From: a virus | Virus genome (UHGV): UHGV-0172637 | Length of the DNA: 43,019 nt | Direction: 5' to 3' (one strand) | Shown here: one piece after another, positions 2,877 through 42,969 of the stretch | Position numbering within the stretch: position 1 is the stretch's first letter | Layout of the letters: each line of letters starts with the position of its first letter | Position numbers and translations under genes: made by a program | Notes under the pieces: generated by a model | What the model saw: the letters and a program-made list of their open reading frames with translations, nothing else | Databases searched by the model: none | What the model was told of the DNA's origin: nothing

Positions 2877-4115
2877 TTACTTTTTCATCACCTTTTCAGC
2901 AACACCAGCAATTGCCTCAAGTCCATCAAACATTGCTGGTATATTATTTTCATTGTTTTGTATTGGACTAAAAATAAGAGCATCAAAAGAGTCTAAAACT
3001 TTCTCAATAGCAATGTTATTTTTTCTTCTATATTCAACATACCCATCAATGAAAGCACATAAGCTGAGCCTTAGATCAATCTGCATAAGTTGAGTTCTTA
3101 AAGCCTTCGCTTCTAAATATGAAAGTCTGAAAAAATAAATAATTGCCATCTCAATAGTAATAAATGGGAATAGAATGAAGATCGCTGAATAATCTTTAGG
3201 ATATAAATCAGGGAAAGAAAAATGGATTATTACAGCAATCACAGGAGCAATGAATACAGTCCCAAATAAATTTTTATAATTCATTTCAGTTGTAGAAAGC
3301 TCTTTCTCTTTTTTTTCTTTTATTATGTTAAAACCAGAGCTTAACCCAACAAAATTATACTCTGATTTTAAATTTCTCACACGCTCCTCTAGTGCCTTAA
3401 TTTCATCCCTTGATTCATCCACGTATTTTAAATTAGCATCTGCTTCTAGTTTTCCATCTACAATAGCTTTTTTAATGTCATTATAATTATCAGATATTAA
3501 TGATATGGATGCTTTAGTGTCTTTGTTAATTTTATCAATAGCCAAATCTAAGTTGCTAGAAATTTCATCGAGAAACTTCCGTTTGTTTTCGTCGAGGTCT
3601 GATATAAAGTTTCTAGCATCAGTTAGTTTGTTACTGTTTAGTAACCACTTCATAAGTGAAATAGGTAGTTTGTCTCGAATCCATGAAAATTGGTATTTAC
3701 CTTCATTATCCTTGAAAGTGTTTTCTAATAATGTCAATTTGCTGTCTGTGATAAAGTTAGGCGTGATAATGGAACGAGTGCCTGTCCAATAATAGTACTC
3801 GTACAATACTCTTAACAAGGTTGACAAAAAATCAATCTTGTCTTTCTTGTAATCGTCAACTTGAAATTCCATGTGCAACAATATATTGTCTTGATTAAAA
3901 CCTGTATTCTCATCTAAATGTTGTGGGTTGTTATTTATTATTGATATAAAAGTCGACCATGCTGAGTCCAATGTAGTATAGAATAAAGATATGCTATTAT
4001 CTTTCTTTTTGGCGGATTTCTTGGACATTTCTTCAAACCTAATAAGATCTCTACTAATTATAGTATTTGTTTCCTTTATTGAATTAAGTATTTTATTATC
4101 GCTATATAGTCCCAT
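2877..4115 (-). CDS. Hypothetical membrane-anchored protein (coiled-coil region, two C-terminal TM helices), AT-rich accessory gene
   Basis: 412 aa; Lys/Asn/Ile-rich, visibly AT-rich DNA; hydrophobic segments LFGTVFIAPVIAVIIHF and YSAIFILFPFITIEMAIIYFF; heptad-like segment DESRDEIKALEERVRNLKSE. Confidence 0.6.
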   Translation of the reverse strand: MGLYSDNKILNSIKETNTIISRDLIRFEEMSKKSAKKKDNSISLFYTTLDSAWSTFISIINNNPQHLDENTGFNQDNILLHMEFQVDDYKKDKIDFLSTLLRVLYEYYYWTGTRSIITPNFITDSKLTLLENTFKDNEGKYQFSWIRDKLPISLMKWLLNSNKLTDARNFISDLDENKRKFLDEISSNLDLAIDKINKDTKASISLISDNYNDIKKAIVDGKLEADANLKYVDESRDEIKALEERVRNLKSEYNFVGLSSGFNIIKEKKEKELSTTEMNYKNLFGTVFIAPVIAVIIHFSFPDLYPKDYSAIFILFPFITIEMAIIYFFRLSYLEAKALRTQLMQIDLRLSLCAFIDGYVEYRRKNNIAIEKVLDSFDALIFSPIQNNENNIPAMFDGLEAIAGVAEKVMKK

Positions 4116-5116: not shown

Positions 5117-5491
5117 TCACTGAGCCGCTTTAAGCTTTCCATCCACCGCGCCAGTGATCCCGAACAGCTGACCCTGATCTTCCTGCAGGATGGTGAGCTT
5201 CCCGCCTTTGTTGACCCACATCGGGGTTTCGGTTGTGTCCTCTTCGGATGCTTTACCACGCGGTGTTGGGGTGCTGTAGTTCAGCTTGTGCTTGATCTTG
5301 ACGCGCTTCTCTTCAACGGAATTACCCATGCGCTCAAAATCAAATGTGAGGACTACTTTGCCTTTGTTGCCGTTGTTCAGAACGCCAAGTGCGGTGGTAT
5401 TAAGTGCTGCCGCGATTTTGTTCATGAACACGCCGGCATCCAGTTCGCCAAGAAAATCTGGCACTACGGTCATGCGGTCATTACTCATGGT
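5117..5491 (-). CDS. Hypothetical early-left protein (124 aa from the RBS-supported start)
   Basis: ORF track gives 5117-5575; internal ATG at 5491 preceded by GAGGG RBS; first gene after a ~500-nt ORF-free leader. Confidence 0.5.
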   Translation of the reverse strand, partial: TMSNDRMTVVPDFLGELDAGVFMNKIAAALNTTALGVLNNGNKGKVVLTFDFERMGNSVEEKRVKIKHKLNYSTPTPRGKASEEDTTETPMWVNKGGKLTILQEDQGQLFGITGAVDGKLKAAQ

Positions 5492-5998
5492 TTTACCCTC
5501 GTTATGGCGGCTGCCACCGCCGAACTTTCTCCATACACAACAGAGAAGGGCACCTGCATTTGTCGGCGACTGCAATCGCCATCCTCTTGCCCTGGTGGAT
5601 TGGGTTATGAGCCCGTCGCCCGGTGATGCCCTTTTCTGTTGTGCCCTGAAAAAGGCTGGCGGTTACCGGACAAATGGGAAAACACCGGGCCGCCAGAACA
5701 GGGAGTTACTTGTTATTGCTTTGGCCTGCTTTTAACCACATCAGGCGCGGTGGTAGGTATCTTCGGGCGGGGTGCTAAGGGGGTGATTAGCCCTTGCCCT
5801 TAACACTCCTGCTGGTTTTGGTATTCCTGGCTTGGGTATCGCCACCAGCTATAGGAATTTGACTACGAGTTGCGGTTAATCAGGCCGCGCCTCTGTTACC
5901 CCTCCCGAAGACACCTGTCAGCTAATCATCCGGTTATTCATATGCCACCGGCGGCTACTTCGTGGGCGTCCTGCCTGTTCGCTGTTTGTTTATTTAAT

Positions 5999-6048
5999 GT
6001 AGGATAACTTACAAAGAAAGGTCAAGAGGAAATGTTGGATAACTTACA
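5999..6048 (-). promoter_or_regulatory. Leftward early promoter/operator region (OL/pL-like): two operator copies flanking a TTGACC -35
   Basis: 16-bp sites TGTAAGTTATCCTACA (6014-5999, minus) and TGTAAGTTATCCAACA (6048-6033, minus); minus-strand TTGACC-18nt-TACATT mirrors the rightward promoter at 6768-6797. Confidence 0.55.
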
Positions 6049-6054
6049 TTGAGG

Positions 6055-6085
6055 GGTGAAAAAAAACCGGGATAACCCGGTTTCC
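6055..6085 (-). terminator. Rho-independent terminator immediately downstream of the repressor gene
   Basis: Stem CCGGG-ATAA-CCCGG followed on the minus strand by a run of 8 T. Confidence 0.7.
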
Positions 6086-6732
6086 TTATAAATCCATTAT
6101 CACTTGTCTTACTAATCCGACCAAACGGCAGTTGCCGTTTACCTCGAGCATCCTGTAGTTGGGATTGAGAGGTACAAGGTATTTAAGCGGACCATCAATG
6201 ACGAATTTTTTTATAGTGGCTTCGTCACTTCCCATTAGCTGAGCAATGACAATTTTACCATTTGCTTGGCTGGCATCTCCAAAGTCAGGTTCTACGACGA
6301 CGAGAGAGCCCTCCGGGATGCTTGGTGCGCCATTTGGGTTAGTCATTGAGTCACCGCGGACTATTAGTGCAAAAGCGCTCTCTGAAACAGCTGCTGAAGT
6401 GTAAACCCAGTCTTGAATGTCTCGTTCCGTTATCGCACCACTATTGGCAGTCCATTCCCCGGCTTGCACCCACGTTAAAACGGGAACTGATCTAATTCCG
6501 AATCTCTGCTCTGGGTTCATTGTTGGCGGTTGTTGTTTCCCGTCATCCTTACCCTCCAGCAACCACTGCGGTGTCTTTTCAAGAGCAGCAGCAAGCGCCT
6601 GAAGGTTCTCACCGCCAGGTTTATAGTCACCAGATTCCCAGCCGGTGATCGTGACGCGGTTTACCCCGACAAGCTTTGCCAGGACAGATTGCGTCATCTT
6701 CAGCTCTTTTCGTCTGCTTCGGATTCGATCAT
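6086..6732 (-). CDS. Prophage repressor, cI/LexA-like (HTH + S24 peptidase domain)
   Basis: N-terminal XRE-type HTH (MTQSVLAKLVGVNRVTITGWESG), C-terminal S24 autopeptidase signature (RGDSM ... K); start taken at ATG 6732 rather than track start 6820. Confidence 0.9.
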
Positions 6733-6797
6733 TCATTTTCATGTAGGCAATCCTACCATTTTCTAATGTAGGAGTGCTTGACCATTTTATGTAAGAT
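6732..6797 (+). promoter_or_regulatory. Rightward early promoter/operator region (OR/pR-like) with three operator-like sites
   Basis: Sites TGTAGGCAATCCTACC (6732-6747), TGTAGGAGTGCTTGAC (6757-6772), TGTAAGATATCCTACT (6780-6795); TTGACC (6768-6773) - 18 nt - TACTAT (6792-6797) upstream of cro-like gene. Confidence 0.6.
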
Positions 6798-6841
6798 ATC
6801 CTACTATTTATGCACTGCATGACCTAACTCCAGAGGGAAAA

Positions 6842-7039
6842 ATGAAAAAGAATGACGTTATCTCTTACTTCGGTGGCGTAGGGAAAACCGCCAAGGCGCT
6901 GAATATCTCCCACGCATCTGTATCGGGCTGGGATGAAGTTATCCCAAAGGGGAGGGCATTTGAGATCCAGGCGCTGACGAAAGGTGATTTGAAAGTTAAC
7001 CAATCCCTTTATGAAAAGCGTAGTCATTCGGCTGCGTGA
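6842..7039 (+). CDS. Cro/YdaS-like HTH regulator
   Basis: 65 aa, divergent from repressor across the operator region; HTH GKTAKALNISHASVSGW; AGAGGG RBS. Confidence 0.8.
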   Translation: MKKNDVISYFGGVGKTAKALNISHASVSGWDEVIPKGRAFEIQALTKGDLKVNQSLYEKRSHSAA

Positions 7040-7067
7040 TTAAAACCACAGAAATTAGGGGACAACC

Positions 7068-7634
7068 GTGGATAAACAACACTGGAAAGTAGAGCGACAA
7101 CCAGCTTGGCTGGTGGCTGCAATCAAAAGAACGATCGCCGAAATGTCGGGTGGGTATGCCGAAGCAGCTGAATGGCTTGGTCTGTACCGCGCTGGAAAAC
7201 TCTCAACGGATGCACTCTATAACCGACTACGTAACGAAGGTGATCAAATTTTCCCGCTTGAGTGGGCGATGGTGCTTCAGGATGCGAGCGGTACTAAGTA
7301 TGTCACCGATGCGATAGCCCGCCGTAGTGGTGGTGTATTCGTTCCGCTGGTGGAAGTAGATGATCTTGATAACGGCGATATCAACCAGCGTCTGATGGAG
7401 TCAATCGAATGGATTGGCAAACACTCGCAGTACCTGCGTAAGGCAACCGCCGACGGGGTTATTGATCCGGCAGAACGTGAGCAGATTGAAGAGAACAGTT
7501 ATCAGGTAATGGCTAAGTGGCAGGAGCATTTGACGCTGCTATTCCGTGTTTTCTGCGCGCCAGAAAAGAGTGACGCCCGCGAGTGTGCAGCTCCGGGCGC
7601 CTTGGCGAACAACTCTTCGAGTATGGAGAAATAA
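7068..7634 (+). CDS. CII-like/YdaT-like early regulatory protein
   Basis: 188 aa, GTG start with RBS, immediately after cro-like gene; family assignment from memory of Rac ydaS-ydaT arrangement. Confidence 0.45.
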   Translation: MDKQHWKVERQPAWLVAAIKRTIAEMSGGYAEAAEWLGLYRAGKLSTDALYNRLRNEGDQIFPLEWAMVLQDASGTKYVTDAIARRSGGVFVPLVEVDDLDNGDINQRLMESIEWIGKHSQYLRKATADGVIDPAEREQIEENSYQVMAKWQEHLTLLFRVFCAPEKSDARECAAPGALANNSSSMEK

Positions 7635-7986: not shown

Positions 7987-8833
7987 ATTAACCGGCTACG
8001 TATGGGATGGTTGCGCGGCGTCGGGCATGAAGTTGTCTAGTGTCGCGATCATGGCTCGCCTCGCTGATTTCAGCAGCGATGAGGGAGTGTGCTGGCCGTC
8101 CATTGAAACTATTGCTCGCCAGCTTGGCGCAGGGCCGAGCACTATCAGAACGGCAATCGCAAAGCTTGAAAAAGATGGCTGGCTCACGCGTACACAGCGC
8201 CGTAATGGTAACCGTAATGCGTCGAACGTGTACCGCCTGAATGTGGCGAAACTTCAGGCTGCCGCATTTTCTCAACTGTCAGATTCTGACACGTCAAAAT
8301 CTGACGCATCAAATTTTGACGCCTCAAAAACTGACCCGTCGAAATCTGGCAAAAACGGCGGTTTTGACCCGTCAGAATCTGGCGGGGATCCGTCAGTAAA
8401 ATCAAAACAAGATCCACAAGTAACTTCAAAACCCTCTTGTCCGGTTGCGGCGCAACCAGACCCTGAAGTCGTGATTACTGATCAGGCAATTTTGGTTCTG
8501 ACCCATTTGAACCAGATCAGCGGATCCCGGTATCAGAAATCAAAAACATCCCTGGAGAACATCCGTGCCCGACTGCGTGAGGGATACAGCGTTGCAGACC
8601 TGCAACTTGTTATCGACCTGAAGCATGAGCACTGGCACGAGAACGACGAGCAGTACCAGTACATGCGCCCGGAAACGCTGTTCGGCCCGAAGAAATTCGA
8701 GAGCTATCTGCAAAGCGCTACCCGCTGGGAGCAGAAGGGACGGCCTAAACGTGCTGACTGGGGAGCGAAAAAGCGCGATGTGATGGCTTTTGGTCCGGTT
8801 GAAACAACGATTCCAGAGGGGTTCAGAGGATGA
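7976..8833 (+). CDS. Replication initiation protein (lambda O-like) with internal origin iterons
   Basis: N-terminal winged-helix region, low-complexity middle encoded by the iterons, conserved phage C-terminal domain. Confidence 0.75.
   Translation: MSTKLTGYVWDGCAASGMKLSSVAIMARLADFSSDEGVCWPSIETIARQLGAGPSTIRTAIAKLEKDGWLTRTQRRNGNRNASNVYRLNVAKLQAAAFSQLSDSDTSKSDASNFDASKTDPSKSGKNGGFDPSESGGDPSVKSKQDPQVTSKPSCPVAAQPDPEVVITDQAILVLTHLNQISGSRYQKSKTSLENIRARLREGYSVADLQLVIDLKHEHWHENDEQYQYMRPETLFGPKKFESYLQSATRWEQKGRPKRADWGAKKRDVMAFGPVETTIPEGFRG
8285..8402 (+). repeat. Origin iterons: about six direct repeats of ~15-18 bp (consensus TGACNCNTCAAAAWC) followed by an AT-rich stretch
   Basis: tctgacacgtcaaaatc / tgacgcatcaaatttt / tgacgcctcaaaaac / tgacccgtcgaaatc / ttgacccgtcagaatc / ccgtcagtaaaatc read directly in sequence. 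Confidence 0.75.
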
Positions 8834-9711
8834 CGTTAAACAAATATTGCCAGGCGCTGGTGGCACTACGTAGCCAACCAGCCCACGAATTGAAAGAAGT
8901 TGGCGATCAGTGGCGGACACCGGATCTGCTTTTTTGGGGTATCAACGCGCTATTTGGTCCATTAGTTCTGGACTTGTTTGCTGACGACGACAACGCGAAG
9001 TGCCCGGCATGGTACACCGCCGAAGATAACGCGCTGACACAGAACTGGTCTGAACGTCTGGATGAACTGGGCGGCGCGGCTTTTGCCAATCCTCCATATA
9101 GCCGCTCCCAGTATCACGACAAGCAGGCGATCACGGGTATGACACACATCATGAATCACACCATGGACATGCGTGAAAGAGGTGGTCGCTATATTTACCT
9201 GGTGAAGTCTGCCACAAGTGAAACATGGTGGCCGGAAGATGCCGATCACATCATGTTTATTCGTGGTCGTATTGGGTTCGATCTGCCTGTGTGGTTTGTA
9301 CCTGCTGACGAAAAACAGAAACCCACCAGCGCGTTTTTTGCCGGTGCCATAGCTGTATTCGATAAGTCGTGGCGGGGTGAGCGGTTCAGCTATATCAACC
9401 GCACAGAACTGGAGGAAAAAGGGCGGGCATTTATGGCTTTGGCTCAATTCGCCGTTGGTAAAGAGCAAACAATTGCAATGCAGGCAGCCAGGGAACCAGC
9501 AGCAACACCGGAAACTGAGTCACGAATCTGGCCTCTCGAGGTTGGTCTGGTGTTTAACCAGGTGGAAGGCGTTGATGTATTGAGCGAGGCCCAGCAGAAC
9601 AAACTGAAAGCCAACATCAATCAACTCTGGCTGGAACGAACGGCCACCAGCGAAATTATCACAATTGCGCGTGGTCTTGTTGGCAGCATGCAGGGGGTAA
9701 CCCATGCGTGA
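8830..9711 (+). CDS. Phage DNA N6-adenine methyltransferase (Dam-like) with C-terminal extension
   Basis: NPPY catalytic motif (FANPPYSRS); position in replication/nin region typical of phage orphan MTases. Confidence 0.75.
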   Translation: MTLNKYCQALVALRSQPAHELKEVGDQWRTPDLLFWGINALFGPLVLDLFADDDNAKCPAWYTAEDNALTQNWSERLDELGGAAFANPPYSRSQYHDKQAITGMTHIMNHTMDMRERGGRYIYLVKSATSETWWPEDADHIMFIRGRIGFDLPVWFVPADEKQKPTSAFFAGAIAVFDKSWRGERFSYINRTELEEKGRAFMALAQFAVGKEQTIAMQAAREPAATPETESRIWPLEVGLVFNQVEGVDVLSEAQQNKLKANINQLWLERTATSEIITIARGLVGSMQGVTHA

Positions 9712-11638
9712 GATTATCGTTGATAACTTTGCTGGTGGCGGTGGTGCATCAACGGGTATTGAACTGGCGATCGGACGCAGCGTGGATATTGCGATCAACC
9801 ACGACGAAAACGCCATTGCGATGCACAAGACGAACCACCCTGACACACTGCATTACTGTGAATCCGTATTTGACGTGGATCCGGTAGCCGCCACCGGCGG
9901 CAATCCTGTTGGCCTGGCATGGTTTAGCCCAGACTGCCGACACTTCTCAAAGGCCAAAGGCGCAAAGCCTGTGAAAAAAGAGATACGCGGTCTGGCCTGG
10001 ATCGTTCTGCGTTGGGCACTGGCGAAGCGACCGCGCGTGATGATGCTGGAGAACGTGGAAGAGTTTAAAACGTGGGGACCGCTGCTGGCCGATGAAATGC
10101 GTCCAGACCCTGCCCGCACTGGCGAAACATTCAATGCTTTTGTCGGCATGCTTTCCACTGGCATTCCTGCCGATCACCCGGCACTGGCGGAGGTCTGCGA
10201 ATTTCTTGCTATTGATCCTGGCAGCACGCAGGCCAAACAGCTGGTGGAAGGGCTTGGATATGATGTTGATTATCGCGAACTGCGCGCGTGTGATTACGGC
10301 GCGCCGACGATCCGCAAACGCTTCTTCATGGTTATGCGCTGCGATGGTTGCCCTATTCAGTGGCCTGTTGTAACCCATGGGGATCCCAAGTCACTGGAGG
10401 TGCAGAGCGGCAGGCTGATGCCATGGCGTACCGCTGCGGAATGTATCGACTGGAATGTTCCGGCTCTGTCCATCTTCGACCGCAAAAAACCGCTGGCGGA
10501 GAACACTCTGAAGCGGATCGCACGCGGCATACAGCGCTTTGTTATCGAAAGTGCGTCGCCGTTTATCGTGAAGTGCAACCACACGAGCTCAAAAAATGCG
10601 TATGACGCTTTTCGCGGACAGTCACTGAATGAGCCATTACAGACCATTACTAAAAAACTCGGCTACGCGTTAGCCGTTCCACACCTTACAAAATTCCGCA
10701 CTGGCGCAACCGGGCAGCCCGTTACCGAACCTGTTCCGACAGTAACCGCTGGCACGTCAAAACGCCCGGGCGGGAACGGGCATGCTCTCGGGATTGTTGA
10801 GGCTGCATTGACACCATTCCTGGCGGGTAATGGTGGTAGTGAATACCAGGCTAAACCGCGCCCGCTGAATAAACCTGCTCATACCATTCTGAAGCAATCC
10901 CGAGCCTGTCTTGTTGCGCCAGTGATAGCCCGCCAGTTTGGGGCCAGCGTCGGCCACCGTGCAGACGAACCGAGCGCAACCATCACCGCTGGTGGTGGAG
11001 GTAAATCTCAACTGGTAACGCCTACGCTGATTCAGATGGGTTATGGCGAACGACCTGGACAAGAACCGCGTGTGCTGCGACTGGATAACCCGCTGGGGAC
11101 CGTTACTGCAGGCGGAAATAAATTTGCGACGGTGAGCGCGTTCCTGGCGAAACACTACGGCGGTAACTATACGGGGCCGGGTGTCAGTATGGATGAACCC
11201 GCGCATTCAGTGACCACTGTCGACCATCATGCGGTAGTTGCCTCTCATCTGGTGAAACTGCGTGGAACATGCCGCGATGGGCAACGCCTTGATGTGCCAA
11301 TGCCAACAATCACTGCTGGTGGCCAACACGTGGGTGAGGTACGCACATTTCTCGAGACGTATTGCGGGGAAAGTGACGATGAATGGCTGGTAACGATCGA
11401 TGGGGTTAAATACCAGATCGTTGATATCGGAATGCGCATGTTGCAGCCGCATGAACTCTACAAAGCGCAGGGCTTCCCGGATGGTTACGTTATTGATCAG
11501 GACTACCGTGGAAATCGCTATGCAAAAGATAAGCAGGTAGCCCGCTGCGGTAATGCGGTACCACCACCATTCGCCAGGGCGCTGGTTGAGGCAAATCTTC
11601 CGGAACTGTGTGCAGTGCAACAGCAGGAGGTGGCATGA
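9704..11638 (+). CDS. DNA cytosine-5 methyltransferase, large form with repeated target-recognition-like segments
   Basis: Motif I FAGGGGAS, Cys motif SPDCRHFS, ENV motif MLENVEEF, RKRFFMV, C-terminal RCGNAV; five repeats of a P-x-P-T-[VI]-T-A-G-G-like segment in the variable region. Confidence 0.75.
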   Translation: MREIIVDNFAGGGGASTGIELAIGRSVDIAINHDENAIAMHKTNHPDTLHYCESVFDVDPVAATGGNPVGLAWFSPDCRHFSKAKGAKPVKKEIRGLAWIVLRWALAKRPRVMMLENVEEFKTWGPLLADEMRPDPARTGETFNAFVGMLSTGIPADHPALAEVCEFLAIDPGSTQAKQLVEGLGYDVDYRELRACDYGAPTIRKRFFMVMRCDGCPIQWPVVTHGDPKSLEVQSGRLMPWRTAAECIDWNVPALSIFDRKKPLAENTLKRIARGIQRFVIESASPFIVKCNHTSSKNAYDAFRGQSLNEPLQTITKKLGYALAVPHLTKFRTGATGQPVTEPVPTVTAGTSKRPGGNGHALGIVEAALTPFLAGNGGSEYQAKPRPLNKPAHTILKQSRACLVAPVIARQFGASVGHRADEPSATITAGGGGKSQLVTPTLIQMGYGERPGQEPRVLRLDNPLGTVTAGGNKFATVSAFLAKHYGGNYTGPGVSMDEPAHSVTTVDHHAVVASHLVKLRGTCRDGQRLDVPMPTITAGGQHVGEVRTFLETYCGESDDEWLVTIDGVKYQIVDIGMRMLQPHELYKAQGFPDGYVIDQDYRGNRYAKDKQVARCGNAVPPPFARALVEANLPELCAVQQQEVA

Positions 11639-12021
11639 AACTTGTGCTCCCGTTCCCTCCGAGCGTGAACACTTACTGGCGCGCCCCTAACAAGGGGCCG
11701 CTGGCCGGTCGTCACCTCATTAGCGCTGATGGTCGTAAATACCAGAGCGCTGCCTGCGTGGCGATCATTGAGCAATTACGACGTCTCCCGAAGCCATCGA
11801 CTGAACTGGCAGCGGTAGAAATCACTCTGTACCCGCCGGATGCGCGCCGTCGGGATATCGATAATTACAACAAAGCCCTGTTTGACGCGCTGACGCATGC
11901 GGGTGTCTGGGAAGACGACAGCCAGATTAAGCGCATGCTGGTGGAATGGGGACCCGTTGTGCCGAAAGGGCGGGTAGAGATAACGATCAGCAGATATGAA
12001 CCGGCGGGTGCAGCCGCCTGA
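11635..12021 (+). CDS. rusA: Holliday junction resolvase RusA
   Basis: 128 aa from ATG 11635 (AGGAGG RBS); MKLVLPFPPSVNTYWR N-terminus and DxD-containing core typical of RusA. Confidence 0.8.
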   Translation: MKLVLPFPPSVNTYWRAPNKGPLAGRHLISADGRKYQSAACVAIIEQLRRLPKPSTELAAVEITLYPPDARRRDIDNYNKALFDALTHAGVWEDDSQIKRMLVEWGPVVPKGRVEITISRYEPAGAAA

Positions 12022-12034
12022 TATGGAGAAAAGT

Positions 12035-12721
12035 ATGAGCCAGTTAATCGTGAATGGTGTAGTAACAATGTCCAGCCGTGATATTGCGGATCTGGTTCAG
12101 AGTAAACACAGTGACGTGAAACGCTCGGCTGAGCGTCTTGTTGCTGCGGGAATTTTAACCGCGCCGTTGGCGCAGTTCGATTTTGAGCATAACGGTAATG
12201 TGTACCAGGAGTATCGTTTTAACAAACGCGACTCTCTGGTGATTGTTGCCAGATTGTCACCTGAATTTACCGCCGCGGTCGTCGATCGCTGGCAGGAACT
12301 GGAAGAAGGGCTGAGTGTCAGTGTTCCACGCTCATTGCCGGAAGCGCTTCGTCTGGCTGCTGATTTAGCCGAGCAGAAAGAGCAACTGACCATCCAGCTG
12401 GAAGCTGCGGCGCCAAAAGTGGAGTTTGTTGATCGTTATTGCTCTGCAAAAGGCTCCATGTCATTCCGGCAGGTAGCCAAATTGCTTAACGCCAAAGAAA
12501 CCGAGTTCCGCCTGTTCCTCATTGAACGCAATATCCTGTATCGCCTCGGCGGCACACTTACCCCCATGGCGCAGCATATTTCCGCGGGAAGATTTGAAGT
12601 TAAGACGGGAACATCGAGTACATCTAACCACGCATTCAGCCAGACGCGTTTCACTGCCAAGGGAGTACGCTGGATTGGTGGTTTGTGGGCTGAATATATT
12701 GCAGGGGGACAGGCGGCGTGA
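12035..12721 (+). CDS. Phage antirepressor / regulatory protein (Rha N-terminal domain + KilA-C-like domain)
   Basis: N-terminal QLIVNGVVTMSSRDIADLV... Rha-type signature; GGAG RBS before ATG 12035. Confidence 0.6.
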   Translation: MSQLIVNGVVTMSSRDIADLVQSKHSDVKRSAERLVAAGILTAPLAQFDFEHNGNVYQEYRFNKRDSLVIVARLSPEFTAAVVDRWQELEEGLSVSVPRSLPEALRLAADLAEQKEQLTIQLEAAAPKVEFVDRYCSAKGSMSFRQVAKLLNAKETEFRLFLIERNILYRLGGTLTPMAQHISAGRFEVKTGTSSTSNHAFSQTRFTAKGVRWIGGLWAEYIAGGQAA

Positions 12722-15093: not shown

Positions 15094-16146
15094 ATGAAAA
15101 ATACTGTAAAAATAAACAGTGTTGAGTTAATCAACGCTGACAGCCTGCATTACGTCGCCACCCTCCCGGATAACTCTATTGATCTGATAGTTACGGATCC
15201 GCCTTACTTCAAAGTGAAGCCCAACGGCTGGGACAACCAATGGAAGGGGGACGAGGACTACTTACGCTGGCTTGATAGCTGTCTGGCTGAGTATGCTCGC
15301 GTTCTTAAACCTGCTGACAGCATTTACCTGTTTTGTGGTCACCGACTGGCCTCAAATATAGAGATTATGATGCGTGCCCGGTTCAACGTTTTGAATCACA
15401 TCATTTGGGCAAAACCATCGGGTCGCTGGAATGGATGTAACAAAGAAAGCCTGCGTGCGTACTTTCCATCTACGGAACGGATTTTGTTTGCTGAGCTCTA
15501 TCTTGGGCCGTACACAGGTAAAGAGGATGTTTACGAAAGGAAAAGCACAGAGCTAAAGCAGCACATTATGACGCCGCTGATTGATTACTTCCGTAATGCC
15601 CGTGAATCACTGGGTGTCAGCTCGAAAGAAATAGCTGAGGCAACCGGAAAGAAAAACATGGCGTCACACTGGTTCGGTGCAAGCCAATGGCAACTACCAA
15701 ATGAAGTGGACTATAGAAAATTGCAGGAACTGTTCACTCGGATCGCTATCGATAAGCACATTCAGCAGAAGCTTGAACATCCTCACCACCAGCTGATAGC
15801 TACCTATCAGTCATTAAACCGCAAGTATTCAGAATTGCTGGAGGAATACAAAACCCTCCGGCGCTGCTTTTCTGTTTCCGCTCTTGTTCCGTATACCGAC
15901 GTATGGACGCATAAACCTGTTCAGTTTTATCCAGGCAAACATCCATGCGAAAAACCTGCCGACATGCTGAAGCAGATCATTAGCGCCAGCAGCAGGCCGG
16001 GGGATATTGTTGCCGATTTCTTTATGGGCTCTGGTTCAACTGTGAAAGCAGCAATAGAACTTGGCCGTCGGGCGATCGGCGTAGAACTGGAGGAAGACAG
16101 GTTTATACAGACCACCGAAGAGGTGGAAAAACTGAAAAAATCATAA
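15094..16146 (+). CDS. DNA methyltransferase, beta-class (N6-adenine or N4-cytosine)
   Basis: DPPY motif near N-terminus (LIVTDPPYF) and SAM-binding FFMGSGST near C-terminus (beta-class motif order); third MTase in the prophage. Confidence 0.7.
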   Translation: MKNTVKINSVELINADSLHYVATLPDNSIDLIVTDPPYFKVKPNGWDNQWKGDEDYLRWLDSCLAEYARVLKPADSIYLFCGHRLASNIEIMMRARFNVLNHIIWAKPSGRWNGCNKESLRAYFPSTERILFAELYLGPYTGKEDVYERKSTELKQHIMTPLIDYFRNARESLGVSSKEIAEATGKKNMASHWFGASQWQLPNEVDYRKLQELFTRIAIDKHIQQKLEHPHHQLIATYQSLNRKYSELLEEYKTLRRCFSVSALVPYTDVWTHKPVQFYPGKHPCEKPADMLKQIISASSRPGDIVADFFMGSGSTVKAAIELGRRAIGVELEEDRFIQTTEEVEKLKKS

Positions 16147-41165: not shown

Positions 41166-41894
41166 CTAATGTTTGTCCGATGATGTGAGTTGCTGCAAAC
41201 ATATATGTTCAGGATGCGGCCTGGATGCTATTTTTTTCCCTGAAGCGGAAAACATTACTACTGTACCTTTAACCCTGGTTTTAACATTCTCGAAATGCTC
41301 TGAAAGTATTTGTTTTAACCCTTCTTTGGAATCTTCGGTGTTTGAAAAGATGCCTTTCTGATTGTATATGCTCATCAGTTTTTTACCGAAGGTATTATGC
41401 ACAACGCCATCACCAACAATTGTGGCGCCATACAGAGTACCATCGTCAGTTAAGGCCTGCGCCGCATTGCGTATTACACAGGTTTTTGTCGATATATTTC
41501 CAGGCAGGCAGTGAAGAAGGTAAAACATTGAAATGGAATCAAATTGACCATGCAATGCTGCGGGATAAGGTTCAAAAACATCATGGCAAATTTTATGTTG
41601 AATTTTTGACTTTCCAGCCCTTGTTGATGCAGCGTTCAGGCTAGCTTCGTTCAAATCCATTAGAGATTTCAAACCACTTTCAGGTACGTGAGTAAGGTAA
41701 AACCCAGTTCCAACACCAATATCCAGATGGTTGTTACCTAAATGTTCCAGAAAGTGTGGAAGAAGGTATTCCTTTGTAGGGCATCCCCATGCAAGTCGAT
41801 TTGATACACCCAAAACCCACCAGTCATAAAGTTTTAGTGTGAATGGTGTGTAAACTTTAGCCCCATCATCTGTGTTTTTTTTCATTAATTTCAC
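41166..41894 (-). CDS. Class I SAM-dependent methyltransferase (small-molecule/protein type, not an obvious DNA MTase)
   Basis: Motif I LDIGVGTGFY; 242 aa; AT-rich 5' half. Confidence 0.6.
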   Translation of the reverse strand: MKLMKKNTDDGAKVYTPFTLKLYDWWVLGVSNRLAWGCPTKEYLLPHFLEHLGNNHLDIGVGTGFYLTHVPESGLKSLMDLNEASLNAASTRAGKSKIQHKICHDVFEPYPAALHGQFDSISMFYLLHCLPGNISTKTCVIRNAAQALTDDGTLYGATIVGDGVVHNTFGKKLMSIYNQKGIFSNTEDSKEGLKQILSEHFENVKTRVKGTVVMFSASGKKIASRPHPEHICLQQLTSSDKH

Positions 41895-42300: not shown

Positions 42301-42969
42301 TCATATTGGCGTTATTAGTTCGGCCCCCTGATTTTTCACATTCCCAACGGCACGCGTTACGGCGTGCCATATAAATTTATCAGCCGGCACAACACCGTCG
42401 GCTGCAATTTCCGCTGCTTCTTTCCCTCCAACATCCTGCCTCATCCATTCGCGCGCGGCTTCCGGTAGCAGTATCAGCGGTCGTCTGTCGTGAATATCAA
42501 CCAGTCCTTTGTCAGCTGCAGCTGTAACTATCAGGAAACCTTCTGCTTCATCTCCACGTTCAAATGGTGTGCTGCCAATCGCCGCCATAAATATCGGCTG
42601 ACCATCGGCCCGATGAATGAAGTAAGGCTGCTTCGTGTCACCTTCCTTTTTCCATTCGTACCATCCATCAGCAAAGCAAATTGCACGACCGTGCTGCCAG
42701 AGTGGTTTAAACATTCTGCTGGTGGCCGCAGTTTCAGATCGAGCATTAATTAGCGGTGGCTTATCCCACCATCCAGGGGCATATCCCCAAATGACAGGGT
42801 CAAGGTGCAGTTGTTCATCACGTTCGCTCAGAAGCAAAACTTTTGTTCCTGGCGCTACGTTGAATCTTCCGATGGGTTCTGGATCGTATGGAATGTCGCG
42901 TTCTGATTCATCAGCGAGCAGGGCAAGATAATCTTCACGCGTCATTGACTGTGCAAAGCGTCCACACAT
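42301..42969 (-). CDS. SOS response-associated peptidase (SRAP/YedK family)
   Basis: 222 aa beginning MCGRF (catalytic Cys2), conserved SRAP signature throughout. Confidence 0.85.
   Translation of the reverse strand: MCGRFAQSMTREDYLALLADESERDIPYDPEPIGRFNVAPGTKVLLLSERDEQLHLDPVIWGYAPGWWDKPPLINARSETAATSRMFKPLWQHGRAICFADGWYEWKKEGDTKQPYFIHRADGQPIFMAAIGSTPFERGDEAEGFLIVTAAADKGLVDIHDRRPLILLPEAAREWMRQDVGGKEAAEIAADGVVPADKFIWHAVTRAVGNVKNQGAELITPI

Follow-up and report, generated by a model that had tools for sequence, protein, structure and literature searches.

The window analysed here, i.e., the whole 43,019-nt stretch of UHGV virus genome UHGV-0172637, carries a phage immunity region in which a family of palindromic 16-bp sites lies on either side of a repressor gene and very probably constitutes the OL/OR operators of a P22-type (immC-like) lysis-lysogeny switch, serving both the repressor and Cro. 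The immunity repressor is encoded on the minus strand (6086-6742; 218 aa) and joins an N-terminal helix-turn-helix (HTH) domain (Pfam HTH_3, 3.5e-15, residues 7-61), with the recognition helix NRVTITGW, to a C-terminal S24 self-cleaving domain (Peptidase_S24, 1.7e-19). The nearest PDB structures are P22 C2 for the N-terminal domain (1ADR/2R1J; 7.5e-15) and lambda cI for the C-terminal domain (3e-21), while identity to P22 C2 over the full length is 44%, with no gap through the HTH. The segments VQA94-G95EW, GDS132M, and K178-K179 are invariant in the repressor family alignment and supply the Ala-Gly cleavage site, the Ser nucleophile, and the Lys general base, respectively. Divergently encoded on the plus strand is Cro (6842-7039; 65 aa; recognition helix SHASVSGW), a member of the P22 Cro family (P22_Cro, PF14549, 2.4e-21; 75.7 bits versus a cut-off of 30.2) whose closest PDB structure is that of P22 Cro itself (1RZS; 1.1e-10 over residues 1-59). 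The next gene of the pR operon, also on the plus strand, specifies a CII-like regulator of the YmfL / Phage_CP76 family (7068-7634; Pfam PF06892, 2.7e-8), which is named YmfL in relatives. The sequence hallmarks of a LexA-like phage repressor are present together at this locus: an HTH, an S24 domain with its cleavage residues, a divergent cro with intergenic operators, and a second operator set at the leftward promoter.

To define the sites, the sequence from 5400 to 7400 was read directly and matched against TGTARG-N4-CYTACA (12 specified positions), and bit scores were taken from a weight matrix trained solely on the sites of relatives and then run over the 43-kb window. Four strong sites flank the repressor gene and face the P22-type Cro. 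OL1 (5998-6013; TGTAGGATAACTTACA; 12/12, 24.2 bits) lies within the spacer and -10 of the leftward promoter pL, and OL2 (6033-6048; TGTTGGATAACTTACA; 11/12, 21.4 bits) lies directly upstream of the pL -35. OR3 (6742-6757; TGTAGGCAATCCTACC; 11/12, 18.2 bits) adjoins the repressor ATG, with which it overlaps, and contains the candidate -10 of the repressor promoter pRM, and OR1 (6790-6805; TGTAAGATATCCTACT; 11/12, 23.8 bits) lies within the spacer and -10 of the rightward promoter pR. Between the latter two, OR2 (6767-6782; TGTAGGAGTGCTTGAC) has a good left half and a right half that is the pR -35, giving 9/12 and -2.4 bits. The central 4 bp of the strong sites are A/T-rich (ATAA, ATAA, CAAT, and ATAT), and the window consensus, with one flanking base added per side, reads ATGTARG-WWWW-CYTACAT, the symmetry axis falling between base pairs. 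The first-pass annotation had described five related sites in these two regions; the motif family is real, with four strong members (18.2-24.2 bits) and a fifth, OR2, that is weak. Its position for OL2 was exact, that for OL1 (5999-6014) was 1 nt too high, and those for the three OR sites (6732-6747, 6757-6772, and 6780-6795) were all 10 nt too low. It was right in placing one site over the repressor start codon, the first base of OR3 (6742) being the complement of the A in the ATG (6742-6740, minus strand).

The motif is far more frequent than chance would provide. The pattern TGTWRGN4CYTRC is matched 5 times, by four of the sites with OL1 counted on both strands, versus 0.32 matches expected; none of 100 shuffles gave as many. 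By weight matrix, the best site in the window after the four strong ones (18.2-24.2 bits) scores 5.8 bits, and by the 12-position match no further site of at least 10/12 exists anywhere in the window; the whole-window search for further copies that had been suggested at the outset thus returns none, and the motif does not occur at similar frequency outside the immunity region. Shuffled windows gave a mean maximum of 11.1 bits and a highest maximum of 18.5, slightly above the score of OR3 (18.2). An unbiased repeat finder recovers the pairs OL1/OL2 (35 bp apart) and OR3/OR1 (48 bp apart) and a pairing of the OR2 left half plus its flank with the OL1 flank.

The sites are embedded in the promoters that they would control. 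A promoter scan places pR at 6778-6807 on the plus strand, with the -35 TTGACC (6778-6783), an 18-nt spacer, and the -10 TACTAT (6802-6807), and pL at 5996-6025 on the minus strand (9/12), with the -35 TTGACC (6025-6020), an 18-nt spacer, and the -10 TACATT (6001-5996); on the upper strand, the pL -35 appears as GGTCAA at 6020-6025, between OL1 and OL2. This bears out the earlier description of two promoters sharing TTGACC -35 boxes and an 18-nt spacer that holds one operator. OR1 and OL1 occupy one and the same register within the pR and pL spacers, OR2 covers the pR -35, and the CTTGACC of pR is fully conserved in the footprint of relatives. For the repressor itself, a putative extended -10 of pRM can be read from the sequence on the minus strand (TGgTAGGAT, 6750-6758), 7 nt upstream of the ATG, the repressor strand of OR3 running TGgTAGGAT-TGCCTAC-ATG. 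A TAnnAT hexamer stands at the same place in three specificity classes: TAGGAT in the window, TAACAT in the K class defined below, and TAAGAT in P22. Since this putative -10 is only 7 nt before the ATG, the repressor mRNA probably has no leader, or almost none, like that of lambda cI. Transcription of the repressor gene would end at an intrinsic terminator on the minus strand (6060-6087), between the repressor stop codon and OL2, in which a GC hairpin is followed by eight U; the terminator scan did not list it, and it was revealed instead by folding (-15.6 kcal/mol, z = -3.3).

The layout of these elements matches that of P22. For comparison we used the P22-immunity locus of UAB_Phi20, where the products of c2 and cro open with the sequences of their P22 counterparts; its OR sites begin at 2122 (OR3), 2147 (OR2), and 2170 (OR1), and its OL sites at 1351 (OL1) and 1386 (OL2). 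The OR3-OR2-OR1 spacings are 25 and 23 bp in both (window starts 6742, 6767, and 6790), OL1 and OL2 are 35 bp apart in both (window starts 5998 and 6033) with GGTCAA, i.e., the pL -35, in between, and in both the repressor ATG abuts OR3. Given these equal spacings, the five sites correspond one-to-one to P22 OR3, OR2, OR1, OL1, and OL2. The expected OL/OR architecture was hence correctly recognised from the start, with the qualifications that OL has two sites rather than three and that the closest model is P22 and not lambda generally.

Conservation among relatives follows the sites and not the DNA around them. Relatives were collected with the repressor in a genome scan (6 related loci) and a viral-contig scan (80), to which the phage records YeP1, mEp390, and ZF40 were added. 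The nearest repressor, at 99%, is from Kluyvera cryocrescens; repressors just 67-69% identical, from Atlantibacter, Kosakonia, Pseudescherichia, Sodalis, Acerihabitans, Yersinia phage YeP1, and coliphage mEp390, keep the four strong sites at equal spacings. Across 30 distinct, gap-free orthologous OR regions, information per column amounts to 1.96 bits in the half-sites of OR3 and OR1, 1.90 in their 4-bp centres, 1.69 in OR2, 1.39 in adjacent coding DNA, and 0.81 in the spacers and cro leader. Operator half-sites are likewise near invariant across 39 distinct relatives while the spacers drift: OR3 is invariant there save for one central base, OR1 is conserved in all relatives, and the left half of OR2, TGTARG, stands at exactly +25 from OR3 in 39/39. 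At the leftward promoter, 52 of 57 distinct loci of the window's own specificity class (the G class below) have exactly two OL sites 35 bp apart. As a separate observation, the cro leader of many relatives contains a single CYTACA-like half-site, approximately 25-35 nt downstream of OR1 and just before the Shine-Dalgarno sequence (e.g., CCCTTACAT or AACTACAT); the window equivalent (6815-6830) is degenerate.

When loci are grouped by repressor recognition helix, operator sequence changes with the helix. With (N/S)RVT(V/I)TGW (G class; 39 distinct OR regions), position 6 of both OR3 and OR1 is G and position 11 is C in 39/39, whereas with SRVSVTKW (K class, a sister clade; 24 distinct OR regions) position 6 is C and position 11 is G in 24/24, the sites there reading TGTAAC-N4-GTTACA at offsets of 25 and 48 bp; ZF40 (SRVTITKW) carries TGTAAC sites of this second pattern. 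OR2 follows the strong operators: its position 6 is G in 39/39 G-class regions versus C in 12/24 and A in 12/24 of the K class, and at its position 11, 26/39 have C and 12/39 have T, versus G in 23/24. The Cro residue before the invariant Trp shifts in parallel, from ...SVSGW or ...SVSEW in the G class to ...AVCRW or ...AVSRW in the K class, with ...AVSQW in P22. Each switch alters both proteins together with four or five sites. The proposal that this OL/OR family sets the immunity specificity of the prophage is supported by all four lines of indirect evidence, i.e., gene context, P22 spacing, conservation, and helix covariation.

This covariation can be read against published work on related proteins. 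The P22 crystal structure has Gln37, at helix position H6, in contact with T7' and T14 (PMC5175364); from the numbering of the paper we map these two to half-site base pair 5, beside the switching position 6. In an "evolutionary code" described for Cro (PMC6649833), the H6 residue is matched to the base at position 6 (Lys to C, Gln to G) and the H3 residue to that at position 5 (Ala to A, Ser/Thr to G). The window fits this code at H3 (Cro H3 Ser, repressor H3 Thr, half-site TGTAGG), as do K-class Cro (H3 Ala, H6 Arg, TGTAAC) and P22 (Ala, Gln, TTTAAG), while H6 Gly lies outside it. The T -> G change at position 2 relative to P22 accompanies H1 Asn -> Arg in the repressor and Asp -> His in Cro, a correlation only.

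Two other explanations of the site family can be set against these data. The similarity among sites might reflect common descent of duplicated pL and pR promoter modules, with no protein binding to them. The repeat finder does return the pL module as a 28-nt, 86% identical inverted copy of the pR module. Yet OR3 and OL2 bear the motif while lying outside the shared module, the motif itself is palindromic, and the half-sites are better conserved than neighbouring coding DNA, keep their spacing, and switch with the helices of two proteins, all of which makes descent of this kind very improbable. Alternatively, the sites could be bound by another regulator, whether host LexA (at an SOS box), the CII-like protein, or a Rha/KilAC protein (11996-12721): the motif has TGT...ACA like SOS boxes, and genes for the CII-like and Rha/KilAC proteins are both present. 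LexA, however, needs CTGT-N8-ACAG, which the TGT-N10-ACA of the motif does not provide; no match to the former at up to one mismatch occurs in 5900-6900, and the 17 matches window-wide are at chance level (12.7 expected). CII-type activators recognise direct repeats, at promoters of the pRE type, and this counts against the CII-like protein at these sites, and the covariation is with the helices of the repressor and of Cro. Binding by another regulator is in our estimation barely credible, and the sites remain best read as operators of the repressor and Cro.

Several observations nonetheless weigh against this assignment, the first of which concerns OR2. At -2.4 bits it is indistinguishable from background by sequence, and 24 window sites reach 9/12; since this score renders OR2 undetectable by sequence alone, the support for it as a putative operator is entirely that of its position and of its conservation among relatives. 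One could thus argue for a bipartite OR, in which OR1 and OR3 are real, OR2 is the pR -35 region beside a fortuitous or vestigial half-site, and the operators number four, not five. Its right half is indeed the TTGAC of the -35, and one subgroup of relatives has an OR2-OR1 distance 1 bp shorter, with the -35 in register with OR1 and not with the OR2 left half. Such an arrangement would leave unaccounted for the constant TGTARG at +25 from OR3, the 1.69 bits of the OR2 columns versus 0.81 in the spacers, the K-class OR2 that switches as the strong operators do at position 11 and in half of the regions at position 6, and the coincidence in position with P22 OR2, itself the most degenerate of the P22 sites (10/14). 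We consider a bipartite OR unlikely, if well short of negligible, and continue to treat OR2 as a weak candidate operator.

The remaining objections touch on recognition, on the promoters, and on precedent. K-class repressors have H3 Ser opposite A or C at position 5, so that the published code is only partly obeyed, and the covariation amounts to about two independent switches among three classes, a small number that follows from the relatedness of the loci. The putative pRM has a poor -35 and was missed by the promoter scan. Relative to the operators, the pR hexamers lie approximately 16 bp further right than in P22: there, the -35 is at the OR2 left edge and the -10 just before OR1, whereas in the window the -35 is in the OR2 right half and the -10 at the OR1 right end. 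Owing to this displacement OR1 falls within the spacer and OR2 covers the -35, and the details of activation and repression may consequently differ from those of P22. Finally, the literature searched yielded neither these operator sequences nor a description of the operators of mEp390 or YeP1-3.

On the model of P22 and lambda, the switch would operate as follows. Repressor dimers and Cro dimers are each predicted to read the 16-18 bp palindrome (A)TGTARG-N4-CYTACA(T), with the 4-bp A/T-rich centre probably read indirectly by analogy with P22. In a lysogen, the repressor would fill OR1 and, cooperatively via its lambda-cI-like C-terminal domain, the weak OR2; it would also fill OL1 and OL2, leaving both pR and pL occluded. 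As OR3 overlaps the -10 and the start of the repressor transcript, its occupation by the repressor would afford negative autoregulation, while Cro bound at the same sites would shut off the repressor promoter. Upon SOS induction, RecA-stimulated cleavage of the repressor would occur at Ala94-Gly95 via Ser132 and Lys179.

A stronger claim, which we entertain at rather less than even confidence, is that the G-class operators embody a recognition mode outside the published Cro/CI code, with a switch logic possibly unlike that of P22 or lambda. The repressor and Cro of the window both lack a side chain at H6 (Gly, versus Gln in P22 and Lys or Arg in the sister clade), yet half-site position 6 stays G, and the new G at position 2 may be read by H1 Arg. 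With pR shifted by approximately 16 bp and an OR2 that is nearly a half-site, the logic of the switch could differ from both models; OR2 occupancy might depend wholly on cooperativity, and pRM activation might be different or absent. The natural Q/G/K series of helices at fixed architecture would be a ready-made system for specificity swaps.

Downstream of OL1, the pL transcript opens with an unannotated, conserved, structured 74-nt element (5914-5987, minus strand). The element is found directly downstream of pL in ST64B, SfV, SfII, SfIV, phiNP, mEp237, mEp460, ZF40, YeP1, and many prophages, which span several immunity types. Its consensus fold has a closing helix and two hairpins, one small and one with 4 covarying pairs (variants CCGGU/ACCGG, CCCGA/UCGGG, CCCCA/UGGGG, and CUACC/GGUAG), the other helices being invariant. 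In position and size the element recalls the antiterminator RNA putL of HK022 (PMC9378689). RNAs of the HK022 put type are approximately 70 nt, comprise two stem-loops, and lie immediately downstream of pL in a phage without N; the window element fits in position and size, and the phage has no N-type gene. A covariance model of the element (19 copies) gave no hit between pL and pR of HK022, even with filters off and E allowed up to 10, and BLAST with the element does not reach HK022. Rfam returned nothing on the whole window at gathering thresholds, and for 5450-6100 at E up to 1 it gave only a eukaryotic long noncoding RNA model (E = 0.27). A hairpin inside cro on the plus strand (6871-6890; CGGUGGC-GUAGGGAAA-ACCG), which forms an inverted repeat with 5931-5950 and resembles the covarying hairpin of the pL leader, gave a partial hit to the covariance model (E = 0.69) that was judged a chance match; the likeness is probably fortuitous because the stretch encodes the conserved FGGVGK of Cro. 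The leader as a whole (5576-5997, minus strand; approximately 420 nt) has no notable open reading frames (ORFs) on its transcribed strand and precedes the first leftward gene, which is YfdP-like, with its ATG at 5491. This leader is modular, with further conserved blocks at approximately 5724-5755 (also matching a P22-type locus) and approximately 5589-5643 (the most widespread), and some E. coli prophages have a ClpX-zinc-finger ORF inserted in it.

The remainder of the window is that of a lambdoid phage, with a replication gene, RusA, a Q antiterminator, lysozyme, a gpA-type terminase, methyltransferases, and the Rha/KilAC gene. The early-right operon includes a Dam-type N6-adenine methyltransferase (8830-9711) and a 644-aa C5-cytosine methyltransferase (9704-11638), and a third methyltransferase, of N6/N4 type II-like character, is encoded downstream of the Q antiterminator gene (15094-16146). 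The protein with Rha and KilAC (ANT) domains (11996-12721), also of the early-right operon and with no copy of the operator motif nearby, could be an antirepressor or add a second level of lysogeny control. A 412-aa ORF (2877-4115, minus strand) that is the most distal part of the leftward operon stands out by a GC content of 30%, where the DNA on its right has 47-54% and that on its left 41-47%; neither Pfam nor PADLOC gave a match for it, its C-terminal part is hydrophobic, and it looks like acquired cargo, possibly an exclusion or defence gene. PADLOC, applied to this and other orphan ORFs, gave no matches except a methyltransferase. Beyond the tail genes, at the right end of the window, lies a gene for an SOS-response-associated peptidase (SRAP, YedK-like; 42301-42969, minus strand), and 41166-41885 holds a class I methyltransferase-like ORF; both may be cargo or flanking host DNA. 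The left end of the window yielded no recognisable integrase.

What emerges is a new and apparently unstudied immunity specificity within a textbook switch design. The approach of pairing helices with half-sites is already published, and our understanding of such switches is unchanged by the finding. Its use lies elsewhere, i.e., (i) immunity determinants become assigned for widespread enterobacterial prophages of Kluyvera, Atlantibacter, Kosakonia, Pseudescherichia, Yersinia, and Sodalis, and for E. coli phage mEp390, (ii) homoimmune members among those prophages become predictable, and (iii) P22 (Gln, TTTAAG), the window class (Gly, TGTARG), and the ZF40 class (Lys/Arg, TGTAAC) form a three-state series at fixed spacing and layout, which is useful for testing rules of protein-DNA recognition.

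Among known systems, P22 is the nearest in design. The P22 operator consensus is ATTTAAGATATCTTAAAT (ATTTAAG-ATAT-CTTAAAT), with an uncontacted central ATAT (PMC5175364), and the window shares with it an 18-bp palindrome whose axis falls between base pairs and whose 4-bp centre is A/T (ATGTAAG-ATAT-CTTACAT versus ATTTAAG-ATAT-CTTAAAT), in addition to the kinship of repressor and Cro with C2 and P22 Cro noted at the outset. The two differ in that half-site position 2 is G and not T and position 5 is often G and not A, with the repressor helix NRVTITGW in place of SNVAISQW (H1 Arg not Asn, H3 Thr not Ala, and H6 Gly not Gln). Moreover, the window is without an OL3, no third OL site reaching 10/12 or exceeding 5.8 bits and the terminator following OL2, and no N-like (gene 24) antiterminator adjoins pL in the window. 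The half-site TGTARG differs from the TTTAAG of P22, and immunity would for that reason be distinct; we predict an element that is P22-like in design and heteroimmune with P22.

With lambda, the window has in common the divergent repressor and cro genes with a tripartite OR, the order of terminator and then pL/OL downstream of the repressor gene, a C-terminal domain homologous to that of cI, which mediates cooperativity and RecA-stimulated cleavage, and a repressor ATG at or beside the predicted pRM start; the lambda cI mRNA is leaderless. In contrast, lambda operators are 17 bp and symmetric about a base pair, the fold of lambda Cro is a different one, the centre of lambda OR3 is approximately 10 bp further from the cI ATG, and lambda OL has three sites.

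Searches with the immunity region against E. coli genomes and sequenced phages gave mosaic partial matches, with no full-length match, and the relevant likenesses among phages are those of repressor and operators. Coliphage mEp390 and Yersinia phages YeP1-3 have the four strong sites, equal spacings, and the helix (N/S)RVT(V/I)TGW, with repressors 67% identical to that of the window overall and 78-85% in the N-terminal domain, while spacers, Cro leader, and flanking genes differ; from this identity of operators, spacings, and helix, these phages are predicted to be homoimmune with the prophage described here. Pectobacterium phage ZF40 and the K-class prophages likewise have an OR3 that abuts the ATG and OR offsets of 25 and 48 bp, with repressors approximately 50% identical to that of the window, but they differ in repressor helix (SRV(S/T)(V/I)TKW), Cro helix (...(C/S)RW), and operators (TGTAAC-N4-GTTACA), so that to judge by these sequences their immunity is different from that of the window.

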